DNA of 64,000 nucleotides. It comes from Anaerolineales bacterium. GTDB taxonomy: Bacteria > Chloroflexota > Anaerolineae > Anaerolineales > JABWBV01. The notes under the pieces are model-generated. The model made no database searches, was not told where the DNA came from, and was given only the letters and a program-made list of their open reading frames with translations. The translations under genes were made by a program, and so were the position numbers. The stretch covers positions 3,547 to 67,546 of the forward strand of contig DATKDL010000146.1 in assembly GCA_035512695.1 (NCBI GenBank), written 5' to 3'. This document shows positions 1 to 58,532 of the stretch, in pieces. How positions within the stretch are numbered: the first letter of the stretch is position 1; every line of letters begins with the position of its first letter.

Positions 1-120
1 GGCCAGGGCCTCCCGGATCGCATCCACGGTCAACCTGCGACCATATACAAGCACCAGGTCGGAGCAGCCGGGCTCGCTCAGCAGAAGATCCACGGAGGGC
101 AGGTCGCGCAGCGAGGTCAT
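1..120 (-). CDS. selA: L-seryl-tRNA(Sec) selenium transferase SelA, N-terminal fragment (gene runs off left edge)
   Basis: Reverse-strand ATG at 120..118 opens MTSLRDLPSVDLLLSEPGCSDLVLVYGRRLTVDAIREALA. This resembles the conserved SelA N-terminus (LP-[AS]-[IV]-D-x-LL ... YG-x-x-x-x-x-x-[IL]R). It is truncated by the window edge, so it is absent from the ORF track. Confidence 0.6.
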   Translation of the reverse strand, partial: MTSLRDLPSVDLLLSEPGCSDLVLVYGRRLTVDAIREALA

Positions 121-145
121 CGTCCAGCCCGGGGAGTCCGGTCCT

Positions 146-544
146 TCAGGGGCGCCAGCCCCCGATCTCGCGCAGGCGGAAGACCGTTTCGAGGATCAGC
201 AGCCCGACTCCGATCAGGGCAGCCGTCGCAAAAGTGACCAGCCTGCCGATCTGCAGCCAGGCGAGGGCGGCGGCGTACAACCCGACCCAGGCGGACTGGC
301 GGAGGACGACCGCCTGGGTCGCGGGGATGCGTCCCGGGAAACGCCGGTTCAGGAATGCGATCCCCGGCAGCGCGCTCCCGCTGACGGCCAGAAAAAAAGA
401 GAGGAAAAAAAGCCAGCGGACCCCGGCAGCATATGGGACCGCGTTCAGGAACAGCCAGACCACGGCAGTCCACCCCAGCCCCCCGAGCACGATCGCAGCG
501 GGGACGAACTTGATCACCGGCGGGGATTGGGGAGAGGTGGACAT
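146..544 (-). CDS. small polytopic membrane protein, unknown function
   Basis: Part of ORF 146..682. Internal ATG at 544 gives MSTSPQSPPVIKFVPAAIVLGG..., with about 4 hydrophobic helices. The longer N-terminal extension reads through a palindrome and is unlikely to be real. It lies 25 nt upstream of selA on the same strand. Confidence 0.6.
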   Translation of the reverse strand: MSTSPQSPPVIKFVPAAIVLGGLGWTAVVWLFLNAVPYAAGVRWLFFLSFFLAVSGSALPGIAFLNRRFPGRIPATQAVVLRQSAWVGLYAAALAWLQIGRLVTFATAALIGVGLLILETVFRLREIGGWRP

Positions 545-570
545 GGGGGGATTGTAACAATGAACGAGAG

Positions 571-633
571 AAAAGGCGAATGGGCGAATGGGCGAATCAT
601 GCAAAAGTTCGCCCATTCGCCCATTCGCCTTTT
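571..633. repeat. perfect 26-bp-stem inverted repeat (AAAAGGCGAATGGGCGAATGGGCGAA / 11-nt loop / complement) between divergent genes
   Basis: Read directly: arms 571..596 and 608..633 are exact reverse complements. The arm contains a tandem GGCGAATG repeat. It sits between the start codons at 544 (-) and 662 (+), so it is not in a terminator position. Confidence 0.9.
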
Positions 634-646
634 CGCTTTTTCCCCA

Positions 647-655
647 TGTTATACT
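647..655 (+). promoter_or_regulatory. extended -10 box TGtTATACT, 6 nt upstream of ATG 662 (candidate leaderless promoter)
   Basis: Sequence tgttatact at 647..655. The spacing to the ATG implies a transcription start at or next to the start codon. Confidence 0.4.
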
Positions 656-661
656 CCCCCC

Positions 662-910
662 ATGGTCGATATCGAACTCCACTACTGCGTCCCTTGAAAC
701 TACACAGCGCGGGCCGTCGGTCTGGCGGACGAACTGCTCAAGGATTATGCGAAAGATATTCGCGCATTCAAGCTGGTTCCTTCAGATGGAGGGCGGTTTG
801 AATTCTCGGTGAACGGGGAGCTGTTGTTTTCCAAGAAAGAACGCAAGCGGCACGCCGAACCGGGTGAGATTCTCAAGGTTTTTCAGCGATATCTCGAAGC
901 CCAGGTGTAA
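662..910 (+). CDS. SelW/SelT/SelH (Rdx) family selenoprotein with in-frame UGA (Sec) at 695..697
   Basis: Manual translation gives MVDIELHYCVP-U-NYTARAVGLADELLKDYAKDIRAFKLVPSDGGRFEFSVNGELLFSKKERKRHAEPGEILKVFQRYLEAQV, ending at TAA 908..910. It carries the CxxU redox motif and the GGxFE..NGeLlFSKK signature of the Rdx fold. A selA fragment lies nearby. The ORF track misses it because of the TGA. Confidence 0.8.
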
Positions 911-914
911 AAAC

Positions 915-970
915 GGAAAACAATCCATAGCGGAGCCGGGCTTTGCCCGGCTCCGCTATGGATTGTTTCC
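915..970 (+). terminator. long hairpin (24-bp perfect core, 3-nt loop) after the selenoprotein gene
   Basis: Bases 918..941 and 945..968 are exact reverse complements (AAACAATCCATAGCGGAGCCGGGC / TTT / complement). The stem includes A-run and T-run ends. Confidence 0.7.
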
Positions 971-5689: not shown

Positions 5690-7708
5690 ATGCTGACAAC
5701 CCCCGAAAAAATCATTTTTGCCCTCGCCGTCCTGCTCACCCTCGCCGTCATTTACCGGGATTCAATCCGGTTGGTCAAGATCATCCGCCGCGGCCGCGGC
5801 TCGATCGACTGGGTCCTGGTCCGGAAGCGCCTGGCCGGCGTCCTGGCGAAGACCGCCGCACTAACCCCCACCTGGCGTTTGCGCCTTGGCCCGAGTTTCT
5901 TCCACGCCCTGGTGGCCTGGGCGTTCATGTATTATCTGCTGGTCAACGCCGGGGACGTTTATGAGGGCTATTTCGAAGGGAGATTCCTGGGCACGGGGCT
6001 GATTGGAAACATCTACAGGCTGCTGGCGGATCTGCTGAGCGCCGCTGCCCTGATCGGGATGGCGGTGCTTATGGTCCGGCGGTGGATGTTCCGGCCGGAT
6101 ACCCTGACCGCCCGCGAATCGACCCTGCTGCACCCCAGGGCGCGCGCCGGGATCCGGCGCGATTCGCTGATCGTCGGGGTCTTTATCCTGGTGCACGTCG
6201 GGTTCCGGTTGATCGGGCAGTCGTTCCACATCCGGCTCGAAGGCGCGGACGCCTGGCAGCCGGTCGCCACTGCGGTCAGCGGGCTGTGGGCGGGTTTTTC
6301 CGAGCCGGCTGCCGTCGTTGGGCAGCACATCGGGTTCTGGGTGGCGCTCGGCGCGATCCTGGCCTTTTTCCCGTACCTGCCGTATTCGAAGCACCTGCAC
6401 CTGGTCTTCACACCGATCAATTTCCTGGTCACACCGGAGCGCCGATCGATCGGGGAGCTGTCGCACGTGGATTTCGACGACCCAGCGCTGGAGTCGTTTG
6501 GGGCGACCCGGTTGGAGGACCTGGGTTTCGAGCAGATCGTCGATGCCTACGCCTGCATCATGTGCTACCGCTGCCAGGAGGTTTGCCCGGCTTATGAGAC
6601 CGGCAAGGTCCTCTCCCCCGCGGCCCTGGAGATCAACAAGCGCTACTTCCTGAACCAGGAAGGGGCGAAGCTCGCCGCCGGCGCCGATAGCAGCCAGACC
6701 CTGATCGAATTCGCCATCCCGACCGAGGCCGTCTGGGCCTGCACGGCCTGCGGCGCTTGCATCGACATCTGCCCGGTCGGGAACGAGCCGATGCGGGACA
6801 TCCTGGATATCCGCCGTGCCCTGGTCCTGATGGAAAATTCGTTTCCGGTTCAGCTTCAAACCGCGTATCGCGGGATGGAGCGCAACGCCAACCCGTGGAA
6901 CGTCCCGCCTGCCGAGCGGGTCAAGTGGGCTGAGGGGCTTGACGTACCGACGATCGAGCAGAACCCGGAGGCCGAGATTTTGTGGTGGGTCGGCTGCGCG
7001 GCGGCGACCGATGTGCGGGCCCAAAAGACAGCCCGCGCCTTCGCCGAGATCCTGAACAAGGCCGGGGTCAGCTTCGCCATCCTGGGGCAGGGGGAGGCCT
7101 GCACGGGCGACGCCGCCCGGCGCACCGGCGCCGAGCACATCTTCTTCGAGCTGGCGACGGCCAACGTCGAGGTGCTGAACGAAGTCACGGCGGATGGCGG
7201 TCCAAAGCGGATCGTCGCCGCTTGCCCGCACTGCCTGCATACCTTGATGAACGAATACCCGGCTTACGGGGGGCACTATGAAGTCATCCACCACACCCAG
7301 CTGATCAACGAGCTGGTCGGCGCCGGCCGGCTCAAGATCGATGCACAGAAGATGATCGACGGGGTCACTTTCCACGACCCCTGCTATCTCGGCCGCCAGA
7401 ACGGGATCGTGGATGCGCCGCGCATCGCCCTGGACGCGGTATCGACCGGCCAGGTTGAAATGGCGGCGTACGGGGAGAAGTCCTTCTGCTGTGGGGCCGG
7501 GGGCGGGCAAGCCTGGAAGGAGGAGGAGCACGGAGACGTTTCCGTCAACGCGACCCGCTTCAAACAGGCCCAGTCGACCGGAGCGGGGACCCTGGCCGTC
7601 GGCTGTCCGTTCTGCATGATGATGCTGACCGACGCGGCAAAGGACGCCGCGGGCGAGATGCAGGTGAAGGACGTGGCGGAGATCGTGGCCGAATCTCTCC
7701 TGTCATAA
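5690..7708 (+). CDS. membrane-bound (Fe-S)-binding oxidoreductase: NarI/DsrM-like N-terminal helices fused to a 2x[4Fe-4S] + two CCG-domain HdrD/DsrK-like module
   Basis: 672 aa. The N-terminal TM region has 4 conserved-looking His residues. Ferredoxin motifs CIMCYRCQEVCP and CTACGACIDICP. Cys-rich CCG-type motifs (WVGC..., CPHC, DPCY, FCCG, GCPFC). Confidence 0.75.
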   Translation: MLTTPEKIIFALAVLLTLAVIYRDSIRLVKIIRRGRGSIDWVLVRKRLAGVLAKTAALTPTWRLRLGPSFFHALVAWAFMYYLLVNAGDVYEGYFEGRFLGTGLIGNIYRLLADLLSAAALIGMAVLMVRRWMFRPDTLTARESTLLHPRARAGIRRDSLIVGVFILVHVGFRLIGQSFHIRLEGADAWQPVATAVSGLWAGFSEPAAVVGQHIGFWVALGAILAFFPYLPYSKHLHLVFTPINFLVTPERRSIGELSHVDFDDPALESFGATRLEDLGFEQIVDAYACIMCYRCQEVCPAYETGKVLSPAALEINKRYFLNQEGAKLAAGADSSQTLIEFAIPTEAVWACTACGACIDICPVGNEPMRDILDIRRALVLMENSFPVQLQTAYRGMERNANPWNVPPAERVKWAEGLDVPTIEQNPEAEILWWVGCAAATDVRAQKTARAFAEILNKAGVSFAILGQGEACTGDAARRTGAEHIFFELATANVEVLNEVTADGGPKRIVAACPHCLHTLMNEYPAYGGHYEVIHHTQLINELVGAGRLKIDAQKMIDGVTFHDPCYLGRQNGIVDAPRIALDAVSTGQVEMAAYGEKSFCCGAGGGQAWKEEEHGDVSVNATRFKQAQSTGAGTLAVGCPFCMMMLTDAAKDAAGEMQVKDVAEIVAESLLS

Positions 7709-30746: not shown

Positions 30747-33700
30747 CTAGGATTTCGGTACGGTGAAATAGAACGTGCTCCCTTCGCCCGGGACCCCGGC
30801 ACTTTCGATCCGGATCGTCCCGCCGTGGAGTTCGACCAGGTAGCGGACGATGGACAGGCCCAGGCCGGTCCCGGCGGTGGATGTCACCAGTGGGGCATCC
30901 CCCCGATAGAACCGGTCGAAAATCTGGGGCTGGTCTTTCGGGGCCACGCCGACGCCGGTGTCGCGGACAACGACTTCGATAAATTCGACGGAGGGGCGGA
31001 ACAGGATCTCGATCTCGCCGTCCGCTTCGGTGTAGTTATAGGCGTTCCCGACCAGGTTGTCGAGGATCTGCCGCAGCCGGGCCGGGTCGGCGTGAGCCGC
31101 GGGCGGCGTCCAATCCGATGAGACCCAGATCCGCATCGGTTTTTTCTCTTCCTGCGACCGCAGCCGGTAGTCGGTGACCACTTCTCCTGCCAGTTCGACA
31201 AGGTCGACAGACCCTCGTTCAAGGAAGACCTTGCCGGCCTCGATGCGGGAGACTTCGAGTAGATCGCTGACCAGGATGTTGAGCCGCTCCGTATTTTCCT
31301 GCACGACCCGAAGAAATTCGTGTTGCTGCGGGTTAACGATGCCGGCCGCGCCCATCAGCAGGATGTCGACATAGCCTTTGATCGAGGTCAATGGGGTCCT
31401 CAGCTCATGCGAAACGGTGGCGACAAATTCCGATTTCATCCTGTCGACTTCGATCAAGTGGGTGATGTCGCGGAAGATCGAGACGGTGCCGAGGAATTCG
31501 TGCGGTAGGGCGACCGGTGCCAGGTTAACGGCGGCGACGCGGACCTCATCCAGGGCGATTTCCTCCGAAAACGAATCGCCGGTTTCGATCGAATTCGGAT
31601 TGGCGGACCAGGCCTGGATCGTATCTAACCACGACCGGCAGGGCGGACCGAGCAGTTCGGAGAAATCATCCAACGACCGCCCAACGACTGCCTTGCTCGC
31701 CAGGTCCAGGATCTGCTCTGCGGCGTGGTTGAACACGGTGACCTGGCCGCGCGAATCGGTGACGATGACACCGTCGACGACCGATTCGAGAATGGCAAGC
31801 AGCCGGCTGGATTCGATCTGCTGGGACCGCAGCATTCCGCCGAGTCTTTCCGCCTGGTCGCGGATCAGCAAGTATAGATGCGCGTTATTAACCGCTACCG
31901 CGACCTGCTTGGATGCAGCCTGGATCAGCTCCAGGTGGTGCTGGGTGAATACCCCGCTTTCCCGGTGGAAGAGCATCAGGGCGCCGAGCGCTTCGGCGCC
32001 CAGCATCAGCGGGATCGCGATGACGCTGCGGTGCTGTGCTTCCCACAGCGGATCCGCCCGCGCATCGTCGATCAAAGCCGGCTCTCGGGTGCGGATAACC
32101 CGGTCCGCCAGGCGCCGGTCGAAATCGTGCGGGAGGGTCTCACCGGTTTCCGGGAGCGTCGCGTCGTGGCCGTACGAAGCCCTACGAACGAGCGATTCAT
32201 CGGCAGGGTTGGCGATGATGAGGGTGCTCTGTTCTGCACCGGTGATGCGGTTGATCAGTGCCAGCGTGCGGTTCAAGACGATGTCCATATCCAGGCTGGC
32301 GGAAAGCTCGGTAATGATCCCGAGCAGGGTCTCGGTTCGCTCGTGTTCGATGGCCAGCTCGTGTGTGCGAGCCTCGACCCGGCGCTCGAGGTCTTCAGCC
32401 AGCTTACGCGACCGATCGAAAAGTTGGGCATTTTGGACGGCGACGGCGACCTGGTTGGCGATCGTCCGAGCCAGGTCAATCTCGCTCGAGCCGAGCCGCT
32501 GGTCGGTATGCAAGATCAACAACCCATGCAGATCATCCCCGGTCACCAGGGAAAGGGCGAGCGCAGCCCCCTGGCCGGACGGCTCCCAGACCTCGGGCAG
32601 CGATGCCAGGCCCGGGTTCGAAGAGAGGTCCTCGACGATCAACACGCCAAGCGATTCTCGCAGCTGCCGGAACGGGAGGTCGTCGAAAGGTTTGGGATAT
32701 GCGCCGTCGCGCGCGGGAGACTGTGCCGCCAGCCAGGCTTGCCCGGCCGGGTCGATCAAGACGGCGCTGACGATCCGGCAGGCGAAGGTCTCACGGATCT
32801 GCCTGGTTGTGAACCGGAGAATGTGCGCGGTATCCAATGAGGAACTGAACTCGCTGGACAACCGGTTGAGCAGATCGAGACGCTGGCTGCGTTCGTCCAG
32901 TTCGGCGGTCCGCTGCTGGCTGTCCTCGAATAGCCGGGCGTTCTCGAGTGCGACCGCGGCCTGGCCGGCGAACGTCGTCGCGATCTGGATATGCTCCGAA
33001 TCGTAAAAGTTCGCCTCGGTTTTTTCCAGTGCAATCACCCCGACCACATCACCCTTGGCGATGAGCGGAATGCCAAGCCACGATAGCCGCTCGAATTCAG
33101 GCAGCGCGGGGAAGCGCGGGTCTGAACGGATATCCGGGACGTGCAGCGCCCGGCCTTGGGCGACCATGTCGCTCAACAGCCGGCTGTCCTCCACCGGAAC
33201 CGAAAGACCGACTCGCTCCTCGTCGTCCTCAAAGCCTTGCGCGGCCCGGACCGTAAGCTGGTCCTCTTTCAAGAACCAGAAAGTACCGGTGTCGAAGGGA
33301 ATGACCTCGGAGAGATGGTCGAGCAGGGAAGCCGAGATACGGTAGACCTGGAGATCGGAGGTGATGGTGGTGGCGACATCGGTCAGCGCGGCGAGTTGGA
33401 CCGCCCGGCGGTTCGCCTCGACGAGCAGCTGTGCATTTTCCAGGATCAGACCGGTTTGCCGGGCGAGTGAACCAACCAGGGCCTCGTCTTCTGCTGTGAA
33501 GGCCTCAGGTTCTGTGAAACTGTCCAGGATCAAGACACCGATGGTCGCCGAACTGGATGGGATCGGCGCGGCAAGACTGGCGATCGGGACCCGGCCCTGG
33601 GTGGCCTCCTGGTATTTCATCAGCTCGTCATAAGGGAGCTTGTAATCGACAGCGATATTGACCTCGCCCACGCGCCGGATCCGGCCATCCGAGAATACCT

Positions 33701-36700
33701 TGCCGGGCAGCGTTTCCCCAGCCGCAAAACGGACTGCCCGCATGGCTTCGTCGTCCCGGTATCCGGAAACAAATGCCGGGACCAGGCAGCTCCGATTTTC
33801 GTCCCACAGCGCCACCAGAACAGCCTGGGTGGTCCTGGCGACCTGCCGCGCGTTCTCCGCCAGCGCGCGGATAATTTCGCCGGTGTCCAGGCTGCCAAGC
33901 CGCCGGCTGAAATCGAGCAGCACGTCGACCTCGCGGAGACGCTCTTCCGTGCGATTGAGGAGTTCCAGGTTCCGCAGCGTTGACGCGATCTGGCGGCCGA
34001 GCAGTCCGAACACCGCCAGGTCGTTCTCCGTGAACTCGGGCTGCGGCTCGGAAAAGATACCCATGAACGCCGCCCGGATCGCCTCACCGGATTCACCGAC
34101 CGGGATGCAGATAAAAGATCCGGCGTTCAGCTGCTCCAACAACGGCGAGGTGCGCCAGGTTTCCACTCCCCCGGCATCCAGGTCCGCCGCCAGGAAAATT
34201 TCTCCTGTGCGGAGGGTCTGGCGCAGCGGGTTGCGCTGACCGAGCAGAACTGCGGGGTTGATGTGAAGGGGGATCTTTCCGGCGGACGACACGAGAACGG
34301 CGCCTTGTTCGGTCGGAATGGCGACGAATCCCAGTTCAAACCCCATTCCGGAAACCAGCTTCGAGCCGATCTGTTCGTAGACGGCTTCAACCGATGTCTG
34401 CTGATTGATCGTGTGGATGAGTTCCAGGGCTGCCCGAACACGCCCGGCGCGGACCTCCATGTCCTTCAGATCGGCGCGCTGGGTTGGTACGCTCTGGTCA
34501 GCCGTTTCAGCTTCCCGGCGCCTGATCCCGGCGATTGCGCTGCCGGCTTGGATCCCCAGCGACCGGCAGCGTTCGATCGCTGCCGGATCAAACCGGTCCG
34601 CGGTTCTTGCATGCAGGTGGATGAGCCCGACCGGCGCTGATTCGAACTCGATCGGCACCAACAGGGCTGAACGGACTTCCGGATGGGGAGGCGCGCCACC
34701 GGCGTCGAAATCGGCCAGGATGTGCGGCTCCCCGCCGGCGATCAGGCTTTGTTCGAGCTTAGAAAGCGTTCCTCCGGATGCCGGATCGTCTCCGGTGAAA
34801 AGGTCGACCTGTAAAATATCCGCCTTCGGATCGAACAGGATAACGGTCCCGCAATCGGCGTGAGCGGCCGTCAGGGCTTCAAGGTAGATACGGTCGAGGG
34901 CGGCGGCCAGGTCATCCGCCGTGTTCAGCTCCCTGCTGATCCGCGTCAGCGTCGTCAGGTCGTCGACGCGCCGCCGGAGCGCCTCGCCGGTGCGATCCTG
35001 GTCGAGGGTCCGTTCGATCGCACCGGCAATCTGACCCGCGGCGGTTGCGGCGATTTCGATTTCGGCGGGCTCAAACAGATTCTCGCCGCCGGTTGCGAAC
35101 AACAGCTCCCCAACCGACCGATCGCGAATGATCAACGGCACGGAAATGACCGATCCGGCCTCGAGCCGCCCGACAACAAGCTTGTACACCATTTCGGTTT
35201 CGAGTTCCGGGGAGTTTCGCCGGAAGATCCGGGCCCGTTGGGATGCGGTGGCGGTGCGGGCGAAAACCGGGTCATCGGTTTTGATTTCCAAGAGACCGGC
35301 GAAGTCTGCTGAGGATGCACCGAACACCGATGGGAGATGGAAAAAGAGCGCGGACTGGTCTTCGTTGAGCAAGAATACGGCGGCCTTCTCCGCGCCGACC
35401 AGCCGGGCGATTTCAGTCAGCGAGTATGTCAGGATCTCATCCAGGGTCGCCACCGAACTGGCCAGCGCGGCAATCCGCCGCAGCGCTTCCGCCTGGCGCG
35501 TCCGCCGGCGGGATTCTTCGAGCAAGCGGGCGTTATCGATGATCGCTGCGCTCTGTCCTGCGACGATGGATAGAAGCCGCAGTTCTTCGGCGCTGTGAGC
35601 CGACCGGTCTGATTTGTTCGCCGCCTGCAGATATCCAAGCGACCGGCCACCGGCAGTTAAAGGGACCAGGACCGAATCCTGCAAGCCGGCTGCCTGGGCG
35701 AGGTGAGCCAGGTCGAGGGCGATCAACTGCGGGTCTTCGGCTGCGTTTTGCGAAAGTACCGGCTGGCCGGAGGCGAATATCGTTTCCGCATCGCTTCCGG
35801 GCTCCAGCGAGGTTGCGTAAAGCCGGGCGAAATCGTCCGGAATGCCGGTGAACGGGAGGGCTGCCTGGAGACGCCGGGAGTTCTCATCGTATATGAGGAA
35901 ACCGAGCACCTCGACATCGAAGAGCGGCAAAATTCCGGCCACCAGTTGGGCGAACAATTCGCCGGTGTCGCGCAGGTTGCCGGCCACCTGCGCCAGGTTC
36001 GCAAGACCGGTCAGTTCCGCGACCCGACGATTCTCATCCTCGCGCGTCAGGGCATGCTGCAGCGCAACGGAAGCCTGGTTGGCAAGCAACTGGAGCGTTT
36101 CGAGGTCCCGATCGGTGTAGACCCGGCCGGTGAGGGAGGCCAGTTCGATGGTACCGATCGGGTCGTCCCCGATCAAGAGGGGTACCCCGAGGTACGACCG
36201 AAAAGGGAATGGCTTTTCGAGGCCTGGGCCGTTGCCGGGTTCCGGCCCATTCGGGTTCAAAAGGATGGCGCTGCGCCCCCGCAGGAGACGGCCGCTCGGG
36301 CCGTCGTCAACCGGATATCGATCGGGCGGGGTCTCGATCCGCCGGCCGATCTCCGGAGGCCCGATCAGCCGGAACGGGATCAGCACGTTCTCGCTGCGGT
36401 TCCAGATCGTGATCTCGGCGATATCCGCCGGAACGACTTGTTCGATGCTTTCCAGGATTGCGGTGACCGTTTTGGTCAGGTCAGGACTGGACGTCATGGC
36501 GAGACTCAACTCGGACAGCACGCGCAGGGCCGGGTGCTCCCCTGATCCGGCGTCCACCAAACCGGTGAGATCTGGCCTGGCCAACGCGACAGCGGTGACG
36601 GTCTGGCCAGGATAAGGGATCCGGAACGAAGCTGCATCCACCAGCAGCCCATTGAGAGAGAGGCGTTTTTGTCCTGGGGTCGAGCAGAGATCGAGCAATG

Positions 36701-36995
36701 ACTCGGATGGCCGGGAACGGCCGGCGACGTATTCCAGGGATGGTACGGCACCTCCCGGCAGATCGAGCCAATTCCGGAGAAGGTCGTTGACAAAAACGAG
36801 CCGGCCGCCCTCTGCGACCAGCAGAACCGCCAGATCGCCACCGGGGTCATCAAGATCGGAGGCGACCTTAAACTGGCCGAGCGGGTTTGTGACGGCTGCC
36901 CGGCGAGTGCGCAGAACGAGCAGCAAACCCCCTGAGAGAAGGAGGCCGAGGCCGATCAGGAGGGCGGCAGCGGCCTCGGGAGTGAGACCCAGCAT
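30747..36995 (-). CDS. giant sensor histidine kinase: N-terminal TM helix, about 9 tandem GAF domains, PAS, HisKA, HATPase_c
   Basis: 2082 aa. The recurring GAF core motif (S-h-h-h-h-P-h...G-h-h) appears at least 9 times. PAS segment LLAILESVVDGVIVTD. H-box FVATVSHELRTPLTSI. G-boxes DTGVGV and GTGLGLSIV. Confidence 0.85.
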   Translation of the reverse strand: MLGLTPEAAAALLIGLGLLLSGGLLLVLRTRRAAVTNPLGQFKVASDLDDPGGDLAVLLVAEGGRLVFVNDLLRNWLDLPGGAVPSLEYVAGRSRPSESLLDLCSTPGQKRLSLNGLLVDAASFRIPYPGQTVTAVALARPDLTGLVDAGSGEHPALRVLSELSLAMTSSPDLTKTVTAILESIEQVVPADIAEITIWNRSENVLIPFRLIGPPEIGRRIETPPDRYPVDDGPSGRLLRGRSAILLNPNGPEPGNGPGLEKPFPFRSYLGVPLLIGDDPIGTIELASLTGRVYTDRDLETLQLLANQASVALQHALTREDENRRVAELTGLANLAQVAGNLRDTGELFAQLVAGILPLFDVEVLGFLIYDENSRRLQAALPFTGIPDDFARLYATSLEPGSDAETIFASGQPVLSQNAAEDPQLIALDLAHLAQAAGLQDSVLVPLTAGGRSLGYLQAANKSDRSAHSAEELRLLSIVAGQSAAIIDNARLLEESRRRTRQAEALRRIAALASSVATLDEILTYSLTEIARLVGAEKAAVFLLNEDQSALFFHLPSVFGASSADFAGLLEIKTDDPVFARTATASQRARIFRRNSPELETEMVYKLVVGRLEAGSVISVPLIIRDRSVGELLFATGGENLFEPAEIEIAATAAGQIAGAIERTLDQDRTGEALRRRVDDLTTLTRISRELNTADDLAAALDRIYLEALTAAHADCGTVILFDPKADILQVDLFTGDDPASGGTLSKLEQSLIAGGEPHILADFDAGGAPPHPEVRSALLVPIEFESAPVGLIHLHARTADRFDPAAIERCRSLGIQAGSAIAGIRRREAETADQSVPTQRADLKDMEVRAGRVRAALELIHTINQQTSVEAVYEQIGSKLVSGMGFELGFVAIPTEQGAVLVSSAGKIPLHINPAVLLGQRNPLRQTLRTGEIFLAADLDAGGVETWRTSPLLEQLNAGSFICIPVGESGEAIRAAFMGIFSEPQPEFTENDLAVFGLLGRQIASTLRNLELLNRTEERLREVDVLLDFSRRLGSLDTGEIIRALAENARQVARTTQAVLVALWDENRSCLVPAFVSGYRDDEAMRAVRFAAGETLPGKVFSDGRIRRVGEVNIAVDYKLPYDELMKYQEATQGRVPIASLAAPIPSSSATIGVLILDSFTEPEAFTAEDEALVGSLARQTGLILENAQLLVEANRRAVQLAALTDVATTITSDLQVYRISASLLDHLSEVIPFDTGTFWFLKEDQLTVRAAQGFEDDEERVGLSVPVEDSRLLSDMVAQGRALHVPDIRSDPRFPALPEFERLSWLGIPLIAKGDVVGVIALEKTEANFYDSEHIQIATTFAGQAAVALENARLFEDSQQRTAELDERSQRLDLLNRLSSEFSSSLDTAHILRFTTRQIRETFACRIVSAVLIDPAGQAWLAAQSPARDGAYPKPFDDLPFRQLRESLGVLIVEDLSSNPGLASLPEVWEPSGQGAALALSLVTGDDLHGLLILHTDQRLGSSEIDLARTIANQVAVAVQNAQLFDRSRKLAEDLERRVEARTHELAIEHERTETLLGIITELSASLDMDIVLNRTLALINRITGAEQSTLIIANPADESLVRRASYGHDATLPETGETLPHDFDRRLADRVIRTREPALIDDARADPLWEAQHRSVIAIPLMLGAEALGALMLFHRESGVFTQHHLELIQAASKQVAVAVNNAHLYLLIRDQAERLGGMLRSQQIESSRLLAILESVVDGVIVTDSRGQVTVFNHAAEQILDLASKAVVGRSLDDFSELLGPPCRSWLDTIQAWSANPNSIETGDSFSEEIALDEVRVAAVNLAPVALPHEFLGTVSIFRDITHLIEVDRMKSEFVATVSHELRTPLTSIKGYVDILLMGAAGIVNPQQHEFLRVVQENTERLNILVSDLLEVSRIEAGKVFLERGSVDLVELAGEVVTDYRLRSQEEKKPMRIWVSSDWTPPAAHADPARLRQILDNLVGNAYNYTEADGEIEILFRPSVEFIEVVVRDTGVGVAPKDQPQIFDRFYRGDAPLVTSTAGTGLGLSIVRYLVELHGGTIRIESAGVPGEGSTFYFTVPKS

Positions 36996-47629: not shown

Positions 47630-49130
47630 TCTCGGCGACCACCGATCGTTCCCCTTTGATCAGCCAGCCGTTGTAATAAAAACCAACCCCGGTGGATGTC
47701 CAACCGTCCATGACAAAGGGGGTCTCCGGGCCGTCGGCGCTGATCCACTCGCCGTTGTATTTACGGGCGATGTGCAGATGGGTTCCGGTGGAAAACCCGC
47801 CCTCACAGGACGGATGCCCGATCCGGTCTCCGGTGGTCAGCATCTCGCCGGAGTCCACCCGCCCGCGCGTTTCAATGTGCATATATAAGATGACCCAGCC
47901 GGTCTGTTCGTTTCCGTCGCCATCCAGATCCTGGACAACGCGCCCTTTCCCCGAGCGGACGATCAGGCCGTCCGCGATAGCGGTGACCCAGGCGTTGCTC
48001 TGGACGCATCCCAGCGCTTCCCCGGGAGGTGCAAAATCGAGCGCGGCCCAGGCCGACCCGTCGCCCCAACCGCCGTGCGGGCCGCCTGTGAAGAACCAGC
48101 TCACATTGCGTTCGAACGGCAGCTGAAAATCCGGTTGGGCGAGCCCGTCCGGGATCAGCGGCTCGACGGGGAATATAAAAGGATAACCGAAAAACGACCG
48201 GTATGTGGCGAACAGCCCCCCTTCGCTGATCGCTTCCGTCCAGGCGGCATGACCGTGCAGCCGAGAAAAGAAATACTGGACCCCGACCGTCCCGGCGTTG
48301 ATCGTCGGATCGACCGGGACCAGGGATCCGTCGGTCAGGATGTAGGCCGAAAGAGACCCGACCCGCCAGAGATAGTATCCCCGGTTCAGGTTGTCGGCCG
48401 CCCAGGCGAGCTGTCGGTAGAGGCCCTGGCGGAAACCGTCGACCAGCCCCATCGGGTAAGTGCGTTCGGAAGGGTTCGACCGCGTCACCCAGCCGGATTG
48501 ATATTCGATCAACGCCAGCAGCAGGCGGGGATTGACCGAGAAATCGCGGGCGATCTCCGCGACGATTTCAGACCCGCTCATCGGAGCGCCGTCGACCTCC
48601 TCCATGTAACCTGCCAAAAACCCCCCTGCAGATTCGATGAAGGCTGTAGAGTCGAACCCGATCGCAGATGGACCGTTGACCAGCTCCGAATCCGGAACGA
48701 TCTTGAATCCCGGACCGGTCGCAAGCGGGGCCGGAGCCGGGATGACGAGGACCTGCCCGACCTCGAGAAGATCCGGGTTCTCCAGATCGTTTTGAGCGAT
48801 GATCTGTTCGATGGTGACCCCGTAGCGTTGAGCGATCCGGAGCAACGTATCTCCCGGTTGGACCGTGTATAAATCACTTTCTTCCCGTAGCGGGGGCAGC
48901 TCCGCCGGGGGATTGGGAGTCGGCGTGTCGTACACGACCTCCGTGTCCTGGGCGCCCGGCATAAAGGGGGTGGCAGAAATCGAATAGTCGGGTGTGTCCG
49001 TGGACGAAATGGAAGGCCCAAGCGCCCACGGGGCAGAACTGTCCGGTGCGGGTTGAATGCAGCCGGCCAGGGCCAGGATGAACAGCGCGGGCAGTGCGCG
49101 CCGCGGCGGGCCTGGAATGCGAATCGACAT
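47595..49130 (-). CDS. LysM + M23-family peptidase-like lipoprotein, paralog 1 of 4
   Basis: 511 aa. Lipobox LALAGC, LysM YTVQPGDTLLRIAQRYGVTIEQIIAQNDL, GHPSCEGGFSTGTHLHIARKYNGEW. Confidence 0.8.
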   Translation of the reverse strand: MSIRIPGPPRRALPALFILALAGCIQPAPDSSAPWALGPSISSTDTPDYSISATPFMPGAQDTEVVYDTPTPNPPAELPPLREESDLYTVQPGDTLLRIAQRYGVTIEQIIAQNDLENPDLLEVGQVLVIPAPAPLATGPGFKIVPDSELVNGPSAIGFDSTAFIESAGGFLAGYMEEVDGAPMSGSEIVAEIARDFSVNPRLLLALIEYQSGWVTRSNPSERTYPMGLVDGFRQGLYRQLAWAADNLNRGYYLWRVGSLSAYILTDGSLVPVDPTINAGTVGVQYFFSRLHGHAAWTEAISEGGLFATYRSFFGYPFIFPVEPLIPDGLAQPDFQLPFERNVSWFFTGGPHGGWGDGSAWAALDFAPPGEALGCVQSNAWVTAIADGLIVRSGKGRVVQDLDGDGNEQTGWVILYMHIETRGRVDSGEMLTTGDRIGHPSCEGGFSTGTHLHIARKYNGEWISADGPETPFVMDGWTSTGVGFYYNGWLIKGERSVVAENGRFEENEISR

Positions 49131-56711: not shown

Positions 56712-58532
56712 ATGCTTCAGCCGATCCTGAAGGTCGACCTGACGACCCGTACGATCCGTGAAGGACCGGTTCCGCGGGATTGGGTGCGAGACTATTTCGG
56801 CGCCGCCTCGCTGGCCGCCCGGATGCTCTACGAGCACCTTACCCTCGATCTCGATCCCCTTTCTCCCGAAGCCCCGCTGCTCTTCCTGAATGGCCCACTG
56901 ACCGGGACCGCCGGTCCGGCCGTCGGGCGTTTTGTGATCTGCGCCAAATCACCTGCGACCGGACTGTGGGGCGAGGCAAATATCGGCGGGTTCTGGGGCC
57001 CCGAGCTCCGCCGGGCCGGGTTTGACGGGCTTTGGATCACCGGTGCGGCCGAGGCGCCGGTCTACCTTTGGATCCGGGATGGGCGTGCCGGGCTTCACCC
57101 GGCAGACCACCTCTGGGGCGCGACCACGTACGGGGCACAATCGGTGATCCAGCAAGAACTTGGCGAAACCGGGACTCGGGTCGCATCGATCGGTCCGGCC
57201 GGTGAGAACCGGGTCCCATTTGCCCTGATCCTCTGCGACCACGGCCGGGTAGCCGGACGGACCGGGATGGGGGCGGTGATGGGGTCGAAAAACCTCAAAG
57301 CCGTCGCCGTGAAAGGCTCCGGGGAGGTCCCGCTGGTCGATTGGGCAGCGTATAAGCCGGCCCGGTCCGCCGCCAACCGGGCGCTTCGCGATCACAACCA
57401 ATCGGTCGTACTCAGAGACCTCGGGACGGCCAGCGGCGCCGAGTATTTCGATTACCTGGGCGAACTGCCCAAGAAATACTTTCAAAGCGGGGTGATGGGG
57501 CCGGGCTACCACGCCTCCGGCTGCACCGTTTCGGAGACGATCCTGGTCGGTGTCAGCGCCTGCCATGGCTGTGTCATCGCCTGCGGTCGCGTCGTCGACC
57601 TCGGCGACGGCCGCGGCCGCCGCAAGGGCGCCGAATACGAGACGATGGCCGGGTTCGGTCCGAACCTGATGATCGAAGATATCGCCGCAGTTACCCGGCT
57701 CGGGGAGCGCTGCGATGAATTGGGTTTGGACTCGATTTCGGCGAGCAACGTGATCGGCCTGGCGTTCAAATTCTACGAAGAGGGGCGCATCACCCCGGCC
57801 GACACCGGGGGGCTCCCACTCAAATGGGGAGATCCCGAGGCGGCGGCGGCCTGCGTTGAGGCCGCGGCAGTCCGAAAGGGTTTTGGCCGGTTCCTGGCGC
57901 TCGGCGCTCGCGGGTTCGGCAGGTATTTTGGCGCCGAGGAGGCTGCCGTCCAGGTCAACGGCTTGGAAGCTGCCTACCACGACCCGCGCGGCGCATCCGG
58001 GATGGCGCTCAGCTATGCCACCTCGCCGCGCGGCGCCTGCCACAACCAGTCGGATTTCTTTTTCGTCGATGTCCTCGGCCAGACGGTCGATGGGCTGGGA
58101 CTGACCTTTCACTCCCGCCACGCCGGCGCCGAGAAGGCGCGCGACGTCGCCATTCATCAGAACTGGCGATCGGTGAACAACGCGCTGGTGCTGTGCATCC
58201 TCGCCGAAGTCCCGCCGGACAGTATCCTCCGGCTTCTCAACGCCGCATTGGGGATCGATGAGACCCTTCCAGGCCTGCTTCTGGCCGGGGAGCGCGCCTG
58301 GAACATCAAGCGCGTCATCAACCATCGCCTCGGTCTGACTGGGATGAACGACCGCCTGCCCCAAGCTTTCCTCGAACCCATGCCGGACGGGGGATCGGCC
58401 GGTTTCACCCCGGACTTCACGGGCATGCTCAGCGCATATTACCAGGCCCGCGGCTGGGACCCCACCAACGGTCGCCCTGCCCCGGAAAAGCTCGCTTCAC
58501 TGGGTCTGGAATGGGCCCTCCCCGATCCGTGA
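56712..58532 (+). CDS. aldehyde:ferredoxin oxidoreductase family (tungsto/molybdopterin) enzyme
   Basis: 606 aa. The AOR N-terminal domain pattern (ILKVDLTTRTI..., GPLTGT) and length are consistent with the family. The ATG directly abuts the upstream TGA. Confidence 0.8.
   Translation: MLQPILKVDLTTRTIREGPVPRDWVRDYFGAASLAARMLYEHLTLDLDPLSPEAPLLFLNGPLTGTAGPAVGRFVICAKSPATGLWGEANIGGFWGPELRRAGFDGLWITGAAEAPVYLWIRDGRAGLHPADHLWGATTYGAQSVIQQELGETGTRVASIGPAGENRVPFALILCDHGRVAGRTGMGAVMGSKNLKAVAVKGSGEVPLVDWAAYKPARSAANRALRDHNQSVVLRDLGTASGAEYFDYLGELPKKYFQSGVMGPGYHASGCTVSETILVGVSACHGCVIACGRVVDLGDGRGRRKGAEYETMAGFGPNLMIEDIAAVTRLGERCDELGLDSISASNVIGLAFKFYEEGRITPADTGGLPLKWGDPEAAAACVEAAAVRKGFGRFLALGARGFGRYFGAEEAAVQVNGLEAAYHDPRGASGMALSYATSPRGACHNQSDFFFVDVLGQTVDGLGLTFHSRHAGAEKARDVAIHQNWRSVNNALVLCILAEVPPDSILRLLNAALGIDETLPGLLLAGERAWNIKRVINHRLGLTGMNDRLPQAFLEPMPDGGSAGFTPDFTGMLSAYYQARGWDPTNGRPAPEKLASLGLEWALPDP

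Follow-up and report, generated by a model that had tools for sequence, protein, structure and literature searches.

A SelW-like gene of an Anaerolineales bacterium with an in-frame TGA predicted to encode selenocysteine

A reading frame interrupted by a single TGA

Is a TGA in the redox motif of a small gene a stop codon, or does it encode selenocysteine (Sec)? The question is raised by a locus at the left end of a 64,000-nt stretch of DNA from an Anaerolineales bacterium (Chloroflexota; assembly GCA_035512695.1, contig DATKDL010000146.1, positions 3,547 to 67,546 of the forward strand), which is called the window here and to which all positions refer. An earlier reading made from the letters alone (the sequence-only reading) had proposed a Sec-encoding SelW/Rdx-like gene with a CxxU motif at this locus, leaderless, opposite the N-terminal part of selA, followed by a hairpin that could serve as a Sec insertion sequence (SECIS), flanked by two long hairpins and missed by gene callers. 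Translation of the plus strand confirmed the frame: positions 662-910 read MVDIELHYCVP*NYTARAVGLADELLKDYAKDIRAFKLVPSDGGRFEFSVNGELLFSKKERKRHAEPGEILKVFQRYLEAQV, which amounts to 82 codons from ATG 662 to a TAA stop at 908-910, and the sole internal stop is the TGA at 695-697, in the fourth position of the motif C9-V-P-U12. We refer to this gene as selW. Two in-frame ATGs further upstream (at approximately 560 and 599) were rejected as start codons; they lie within a palindrome and are backed by no homolog. A standard listing of open reading frames (ORFs) splits the selW frame at the TGA into a 56-residue upstream piece and a 33-residue piece initiated at GTG, and a gene caller would therefore miss selW. 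The evidence given below argues that 662-910 very probably encodes an 82-residue SelW-like (Rdx) selenoprotein, with UGA 695-697 decoded as Sec.

The selW product is a member of the Rdx/SelW-like family

Family searches were run on the selW product with U replaced by C. Pfam PF10262 (Rdx), the family that the sequence-only reading had suggested for a check, was matched with 64 bits (cutoff 22.6) over residues 4-72 and model positions 2-70 of 74 (69/74), and NCBIfam TIGR02174 (CXXU_selWTH) with 51.1 bits (cutoff 34.2). The score with the equivalog model NF041051 (SelTWH_Campy) was 78.3 bits and thus under the cutoff of 88; the product is akin to this equivalog group but falls outside it. A sequence search of the PDB returned the SelW-related structural-genomics entries 2FA8, 2P0G, 2OJL, 3DEX, 2OBK and 2OKA, with E-values down to 2.8e-11 and with their CxxC aligned to CVPU (YCTQCNW opposite HYCVPUNY). 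An AlphaFold (AF2) model was made for the homolog P0001, which is 68% identical, and not for the window protein itself. The model (mean predicted local distance difference test score 73) has the order strand 1-helix 1-strand 2-strand 3-strand 4-helix 2, with strand 1 at residues 3-6, helix 1 at residues 12-29 and the redox motif in between. When this model was used in Foldseek, the top 22 PDB matches were all SelW-related, including mouse SelW, with template modelling scores of about 0.65. The selW product passes the family tests and is therefore a new member of the SelW-like selenoproteins, a family that is already known.

Four long database proteins (P0056, P0100, P0129 and P0185, 689-4729 residues) also matched approximately residues 16-47 of the C-terminal query, each in 4-6 repeated stretches. 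The matched segment lies within the region K-L-V-P-S-D-G-G-R-F-E-F-S-V-N-G, and these entries may be repeat proteins that have a strand motif of this sort, or the matches may be due to composition.

The TGA is conserved in relatives and miscalled in databases

A locus scan with one genome per species gave at least 549 loci, of which the best 80 (L001-L080), each from a different species, were kept. The label is Anaerolineales, Anaerolineae, Chloroflexota or a genus within these for 79 of the 80, and Bacteroidota for L062. The codon aligned to U12 is TGA in 80 of 80 kept loci. The start methionine lies eight residues before the Cys, tblastn matches of the relatives cover residues 1-80, and every kept locus shows protein conservation before as well as after the TGA; a lack of conservation downstream of the TGA, named beforehand by the sequence-only reading as an argument against Sec, was thus not found.

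The proteins deposited for these genes look different. When 5.8 billion proteins were searched with a word index, 42 relatives came up, and nearly all of them are 56-63 residues long and begin after the TGA position; the only full-length entry carries W at this position, in the manner of a code-4-style call. Searched exhaustively with HMMER, 1.84 billion cluster representatives yielded mostly truncated matches, about a dozen full-length ones with CxxW or CxxG and about twenty more distant ones with a genuine CxxC, including CVPC and also CAPC and CRQC. Relatives with Cys in place of U, which the sequence-only reading had put forward as a check, were therefore found among metagenomic proteins as well as in the PDB, each aligned at the U position. 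The CxxW and CxxG entries are mistranslated TGA codons; examples are P0001 (CVPW), P0043 (CAAW) and P0141 (CSVG). The NCBI-sourced P0027 (62 residues) is a truncated product and matches L057, a contig with a RefSeq accession (NZ_CALIMF010000012.1). In public protein sets the clade is represented by N-terminally truncated products of 55-70 residues or by full-length proteins in which the TGA appears as W or G, as expected for a gene that gene callers miss.

The left edge of the window encodes, on the minus strand (1-120), the first 40 codons of selA, the gene of L-seryl-tRNA(Sec) selenium transferase. The translation, MTSLRDLPSVDLLLSEPG..., matched Pfam Se-cys_synth_N (PF12390) with E=1e-10 and runs off the window. 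The identical 952-nt Logan contig L082 (run SRR8556377) extends it to 145 residues, and this fragment scored 138 bits on TIGR00474, covering model positions 1-144 of 455. The SelA N-terminus proposed from the letters alone was hence corroborated; the selA start is 541 nt away from selW, on the other strand.

A candidate SECIS follows the UGA in two registers

The core of the candidate bacterial SECIS is located at 714-728 on the plus strand. It has the stem CCGUC (714-718) paired with GGCGG (724-728) and the apical loop GGUCU (719-723), and the fold of minimum free energy (MFE) adds the flanking pairs 705-707/734-736 and 710-711/730-731. The element is encoded by A18-V19-G20-L21-A22-D23, and 21 nt (698-718) separate the UGA from the apical loop (17 nt in the alternative register). 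Its energy was calculated to be -6.8 kcal/mol for the 5-bp core and -11.6 kcal/mol for the extended fold of 701-736. The bSECISearch model asks for a loop of 3-9 nt, a stem of 4-16 bp, a G in the first two loop positions, a UGA-to-loop spacing of 16-37 nt and an MFE of -7.5 kcal/mol or lower (PMC13188914). Loop, stem and spacing of hairpin 714-718/724-728 lie within these limits; the energy cutoff is reached only with the flanking pairs, not by the core alone.

Pairing was evaluated in an ungapped alignment (A2) of 81 sequences, those of the window and of the 80 loci, each covering 60 nt around the TGA; the column number in A2 equals the window coordinate minus 691. The sequence-only reading had described an imperfect hairpin at 708..727. 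A hairpin does exist at that spot, but the pairing claimed for it, 708-715/720-727, did not hold: 46% of the cells were paired and 156 of 500 shuffles reached this value. The MFE register of the window sequence taken singly, 715-718/728-731 with an inner 2-bp helix 720-721/725-726, gave 74.6% paired cells and was reached by 187 of 500 shuffles. Both registers were rejected as not better than shuffles. Two other registers behaved differently. Register A (714-718/724-728) had 80.8% of cells paired (80 distinct sequences) and register B (708-714/720-726) had 84.6%; neither value was reached in 500 shuffles, and the slid controls were all much lower.

Registers A and B (A2 columns 17-38, window 708-729) are mutually exclusive and are offset by 6 nt where the 5' arm starts and by 4 nt at the loop. 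When Val19 is encoded by GUC, register A is more stable in 27 of 31 sequences, the window included, with the loops GGUCU, AGUCU or AGUUU, and its pairs are kept in 29-31 of the 31 sequences. Column pair 24-36 of this class is CG in 9, UA in 16, UG in 3 and GC in 3 sequences and hence paired in 31 of 31, and both columns are third-codon positions. When Val19 is encoded by GUG, register B is more stable in 44 of 45 sequences, with the loop CGUGA and 5-7 contiguous pairs; pair 18-34 is CG in 28, UA in 10 and UG in 3 sequences of this class. Both hairpin variants have G-U at loop positions 2-3. Judged from these alignments, the register appears to be set by the synonymous third base of Val19, with a hairpin always kept. 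A conserved, co-varying hairpin, a candidate SECIS, is thus supported by the sequence comparison. Rfam found nothing in the window at gathering thresholds except tRNA-Leu; with a relaxed E-value limit, the only matches were to miRNA models, of the generic kind given by long hairpins and far under the cutoffs.

Stop codon, other amino acid or selenocysteine

If the TGA were a true stop, the locus would hold a pseudogene or encode an 11-residue peptide, and the similarity downstream would be a decaying remnant or belong to a separately initiated product of 33-62 residues. In relatives, it is indeed only the downstream part that gene callers and the NCBI annotation report (P0027 and many entries of 56-63 residues), and TGA is the commonest stop in this genome. 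Yet TGA stands at the identical codon in 80 of 80 species, with both the N-terminal M-x-x-I-E-x-x-Y-C-x-x and the downstream protein conserved; a truncated product would miss two parts of the Rdx fold, strand 1 and the redox motif. Alignments with CxxC homologs run through the TGA position, and selA is present. We consider termination hardly credible. The frame could also be opened by reading the UGA as Trp, Cys or Gly, through near-cognate or suppressor decoding or an alternative genetic code, and both the entries with W or G (P0001, P0043 and P0141) and the fact that alternative-code calling opens the frame would fit such a reading. However, W and G sit in these entries at the catalytic Cys/Sec position of CxxC/CxxU; with either residue the motif would be lost. 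TGA is a normal stop here, ending 24 of the 43 long ORFs in the window including that of dtd, a gene downstream of selW, and the genetic code is therefore standard; further, a SECIS-like hairpin and selA are present, and we give decoding as one of these three amino acids almost no weight. Pseudogene, termination and code-reassignment readings of the TGA are very unlikely, and TGA 695-697 almost certainly encodes Sec.

The hairpin might, in turn, be a by-product of the conserved residues R-A-V-G/S-L-A and not a functional SECIS, with recoding brought about by another element. G716, U717 and several bases of the stem fall in the first or second position of codons for conserved residues, and the hairpin is small, not unusually stable and able to adopt two registers. 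This explanation does not account for the compensatory exchanges at synonymous third positions (pair 24-36 in the class with register A, pair 18-34 in the class with register B), for the switch of register with the synonymous Val codon (GUC to A in 27/31, GUG to B in 44/45) or for the slid controls, which are all lower, and we regard it as improbable. Several observations nevertheless speak against decoding of the UGA as Sec by way of this hairpin. The single-sequence fold around the UGA is thermodynamically ordinary (z of -1.4 and -0.5), the window sequence could also form a second 5-bp register, 710-714/720-724 with -4.2 kcal/mol, and related sequences can exceed the shuffle control even without any structure. 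RNAalifold gave no consensus structure for the 81-sequence alignment because registers A and B overlap and compete. Finally, selB, selD and a tRNA-Sec were not found within the 64-kb window. Since the stability of the single sequence is not exceptional, the case for the hairpin rests on the comparison with relatives.

Proposed decoding and function of the SelW-like protein

We propose that UGA 695-697 is read as Sec instead of stop. The coding-region hairpin 714-718/724-728 would bring the SelB-GTP-Sec-tRNA(Sec) complex to a ribosome that has the UGA in its A site, and the Sec-tRNA(Sec) would be supplied by SelA. The product would be a small thioredoxin-fold protein in which, by homology, Cys9 and Sec12 lie where strand 1 passes into helix 1. 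In the manner of CxxC/CxxU oxidoreductases, the pair may cycle between the selenol/thiol and the selenenylsulfide form and thereby reduce a disulfide or sulfenic-acid substrate; motif and fold both point to such a selenol/thiol oxidoreductase mechanism. The gene would be transcribed from the extended -10 element TGTTATACT, with the mRNA starting at or beside the AUG and thus leaderless.

Start of selW, promoter-like motifs and flanking hairpins

The extended -10-like element TGTTATACT occupies positions 647-655 on the plus strand and ends 6 nt before ATG 662; the spacer is CCCCCC and there is no Shine-Dalgarno sequence. The element thus lies in the range of 5-9 nt from the start codon which, together with a missing Shine-Dalgarno sequence, is taken as the criterion for leaderless genes. 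In relatives, TGTTATAAT, TGATATAAT or TGATATACT is found about 20-30 nt upstream of the ATG and is followed by a Shine-Dalgarno sequence of the GGAG(G) type. The gene that diverges from selW, which encodes a membrane protein (see below), has a mirror-image module: the extended -10-like element TGTTACAAT at 551-559 on the minus strand lies 6 nt (CCCCCC) before its ATG, and the two modules form an inverted repeat (I7, 542-559 with 647-664). A -10-like TGATACAAT can be read 7 nt before the ATG of the membrane-protein gene in L001, the closest relative. A leaderless selW mRNA, as the sequence-only reading had it, is a reasonable inference from sequence, because the -10 motif is 6 nt from the ATG without a Shine-Dalgarno sequence, as opposed to the longer, Shine-Dalgarno-bearing leaders of relatives, and because of the mirror-image module and the motif in L001. 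The placement of the -10 motif in relatives lends this start comparative support.

The divergent intergenic region (528-664) is near-palindromic, with TGTTAnAnT-CCCCCC-ATG modules mirrored on both genes. The two long hairpins noted earlier on either side of selW both fold strongly. The upstream one is a long palindrome at 562-642, on neither strand in particular, with 35-nt arms (562-596/608-642) that are 91% complementary and contain tandem GGCGAAT(G) repeats. It has a free energy of -58.3 (z -10.4), is centred between the divergent start codons and occurs only once in the window; the corresponding region of L001 is without such a palindrome. It is possibly an operator or an inserted element. 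The downstream one is a perfect hairpin at 915-970 (+), located after the selW stop and before the start of dtd, with a core of 24 bp (918-941/945-968), a free energy of -51.1 kcal/mol (z -10.6) and no U-tract 3' of it on the plus strand. It may be a scar or an element at the site where relatives carry trpS. A T-run is present on its minus-strand side only and the hairpin was flagged as a minus-strand terminator, yet no minus-strand gene ends there.

selA, the divergent membrane protein and the Sec machinery

Between selA and selW lies a gene that the sequence-only reading had overlooked. It is located on the minus strand at 146-544, directly upstream of selA with a gap of 25 nt, and encodes a protein of 132 residues with about four predicted transmembrane segments. 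The protein matched no Pfam or NCBIfam family and is 100% identical to the NCBI entry 'hypothetical protein VMN57_10180 [Anaerolineales bacterium]'. The order of a membrane-protein gene followed by selA on the same strand was found in 44 of the 71 metagenomic selA loci with enough upstream DNA, out of the set L083-L162. The membrane protein may be a selenium-related component, or the pairing may be mere conserved gene order within the Anaerolineae.

The adjacency of selA and selW is lineage-specific. Among the window and the 80 selW loci it was seen only in the window and in L001, and selW was beside selA in none of 80 metagenomic selA loci. The neighbours of selA in these loci include genes for an M24 peptidase, tsaD and a dynamin-like GTPase; selB was not adjacent to selA in any of the 80. 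A tRNA-Sec was not found in the 60 of the 80 selW loci that were scanned. Near selA, ARAGORN found tRNA-Sec genes with the anticodon TCA in two related metagenomic loci, at 1849-1946 in L130 (about 6 kb or less upstream of selA) and at 7661-7755 in L158 (about 2.7 kb or less downstream). The Sec machinery is thus sometimes clustered in this group.

Genes downstream of selW and elsewhere in the window

Downstream of selW, dtd (982-1419, +) encodes a D-aminoacyl-tRNA deacylase (Pfam PF02580, E=1.3e-53). It follows selW on the same strand in 70 of the 80 related loci, and in 60 of the 80 trpS lies between the two, also on that strand and a median of 31 nt after selW, which gives the order selW-trpS-dtd (for example trpS at 6200-7204 in L040 and at 6216-7205 in L057). 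The encoded tryptophanyl-tRNA synthetase (TrpRS) contains the motif C-x(21-24)-C-x6-C-x2-C in 58 of the 60 selW-trpS-dtd loci; in Thermotoga TrpRS this motif binds [4Fe-4S]. In the window, L001 and L018 trpS is missing after selW, and it was not found elsewhere in the 64-kb window.

A pattern scan of the window for further selenoprotein genes (TGA, open frames on both sides and a hairpin with G-U in the loop) gave 11 hits, none in the context of a redox motif; homology was not checked for these hits. Among them, the TGA at 47662 was rejected, as it sits within the frame of another gene. Two redox genes of the anaerobe type, at 5690-7708 (+) and 56712-58532 (+), contain no in-frame TGA; one encodes a CCG and 4Fe-4S dicluster protein (HdrD/GlpC-like, a family with Sec forms elsewhere), the other an aldehyde:ferredoxin oxidoreductase. 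The window also encodes a sensor histidine kinase of 2082 residues (30747-36995, -) with approximately eight GAF domains as well as PAS, HisKA and HATPase_c domains.

Comparison with known SelW-like proteins and SECIS elements

Bacterial SelW-like selenoproteins with CxxU and a SECIS in the coding region have been known since the Sargasso Sea and comparative-genome surveys from 2005 on (PMC1088965, PMC1794560), and a 2026 review lists the SelW-like proteins under PF10262, with CxxU, as a prokaryotic selenoprotein family 'predicted with high confidence' (PMC13188914). The window gene shares with these proteins the CxxU near the N-terminus, a length in the range of about 80-100 residues and the in-frame UGA followed by a coding-region hairpin. 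The scarcity of Cys forms in close relatives, noted for the family in PMC1794560, is also found here. It differs in belonging to a clade of the Anaerolineales (Chloroflexota); a full-text search found no paper on Anaerolineae selenoproteomes. Within its own clade the window selW stands apart in being apparently leaderless and divergent beside selA and in having no trpS neighbour, which most of the clade has.

Solved structures of Cys-form Rdx proteins are those of Agrobacterium Atu0228 (2FA8), Vibrio cholerae (2P0G), Pseudomonas (2OBK/2OKA) and Streptomyces SAV_2001 (3DEX), and mouse SelW (2NPB) has been solved as well. The fold, as seen in the P0001 model, and the position of the redox motif are the same. 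The solved bacterial proteins have CxxC and about 100-108 residues, and their PDB descriptions assign them no function. The window protein is predicted to be a shorter Sec form of 82 residues, and it has a distinctive conserved C-terminal motif, K-R-H-A-E-P-G-E.

Like the SECIS of the E. coli fdhF type and the bSECISearch model, the candidate element is a stem-loop within the coding region that follows shortly after the UGA. Its apical loop of 5 nt begins with G-G-U, its upper stem has 5 bp and its spacing is 21 nt, all within the limits of that model. In fdhF the apical loop is also GGUC(U), and the loop G-U lies about 3 nt closer to the UGA than in the window. In contrast to the fdhF type, no bulged U is evident in the window hairpin, and among the orthologs two overlapping registers are in use (loops RGUYU or CGUGR), according to the synonymous Val codon.

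Implications

Taken together, the 1-kb region could be viewed as a lineage-specific selenium module. The four-transmembrane-segment protein would be a component of selenium uptake or delivery co-transcribed with selA, selW would be co-regulated with Sec synthesis through the mirrored leaderless promoter and the shared palindrome, the order selW-trpS-dtd would hint at redox upkeep of enzymes of translation and aminoacylation, and the SECIS would toggle between two registers by way of the Val codon. As a whole this joint view is doubtful, and we offer it as a speculation. The selW-trpS-dtd context, with its Fe-S type TrpRS, and the pairing of the membrane-protein gene with selA are leads on the function of bacterial SelW-like proteins. 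The set of 81 sequences is a natural example of a coding-region candidate SECIS that shifts register with a synonymous codon and is useful for models of the bacterial SECIS. In public protein databases the SelW-like clade of the Anaerolineales is truncated to about 60 residues or mistranslated, with W or G at the UGA, and surveys of the Chloroflexota selenoproteome and of selenium utilisation that are based on the called proteins therefore undercount SelW-like selenoproteins.

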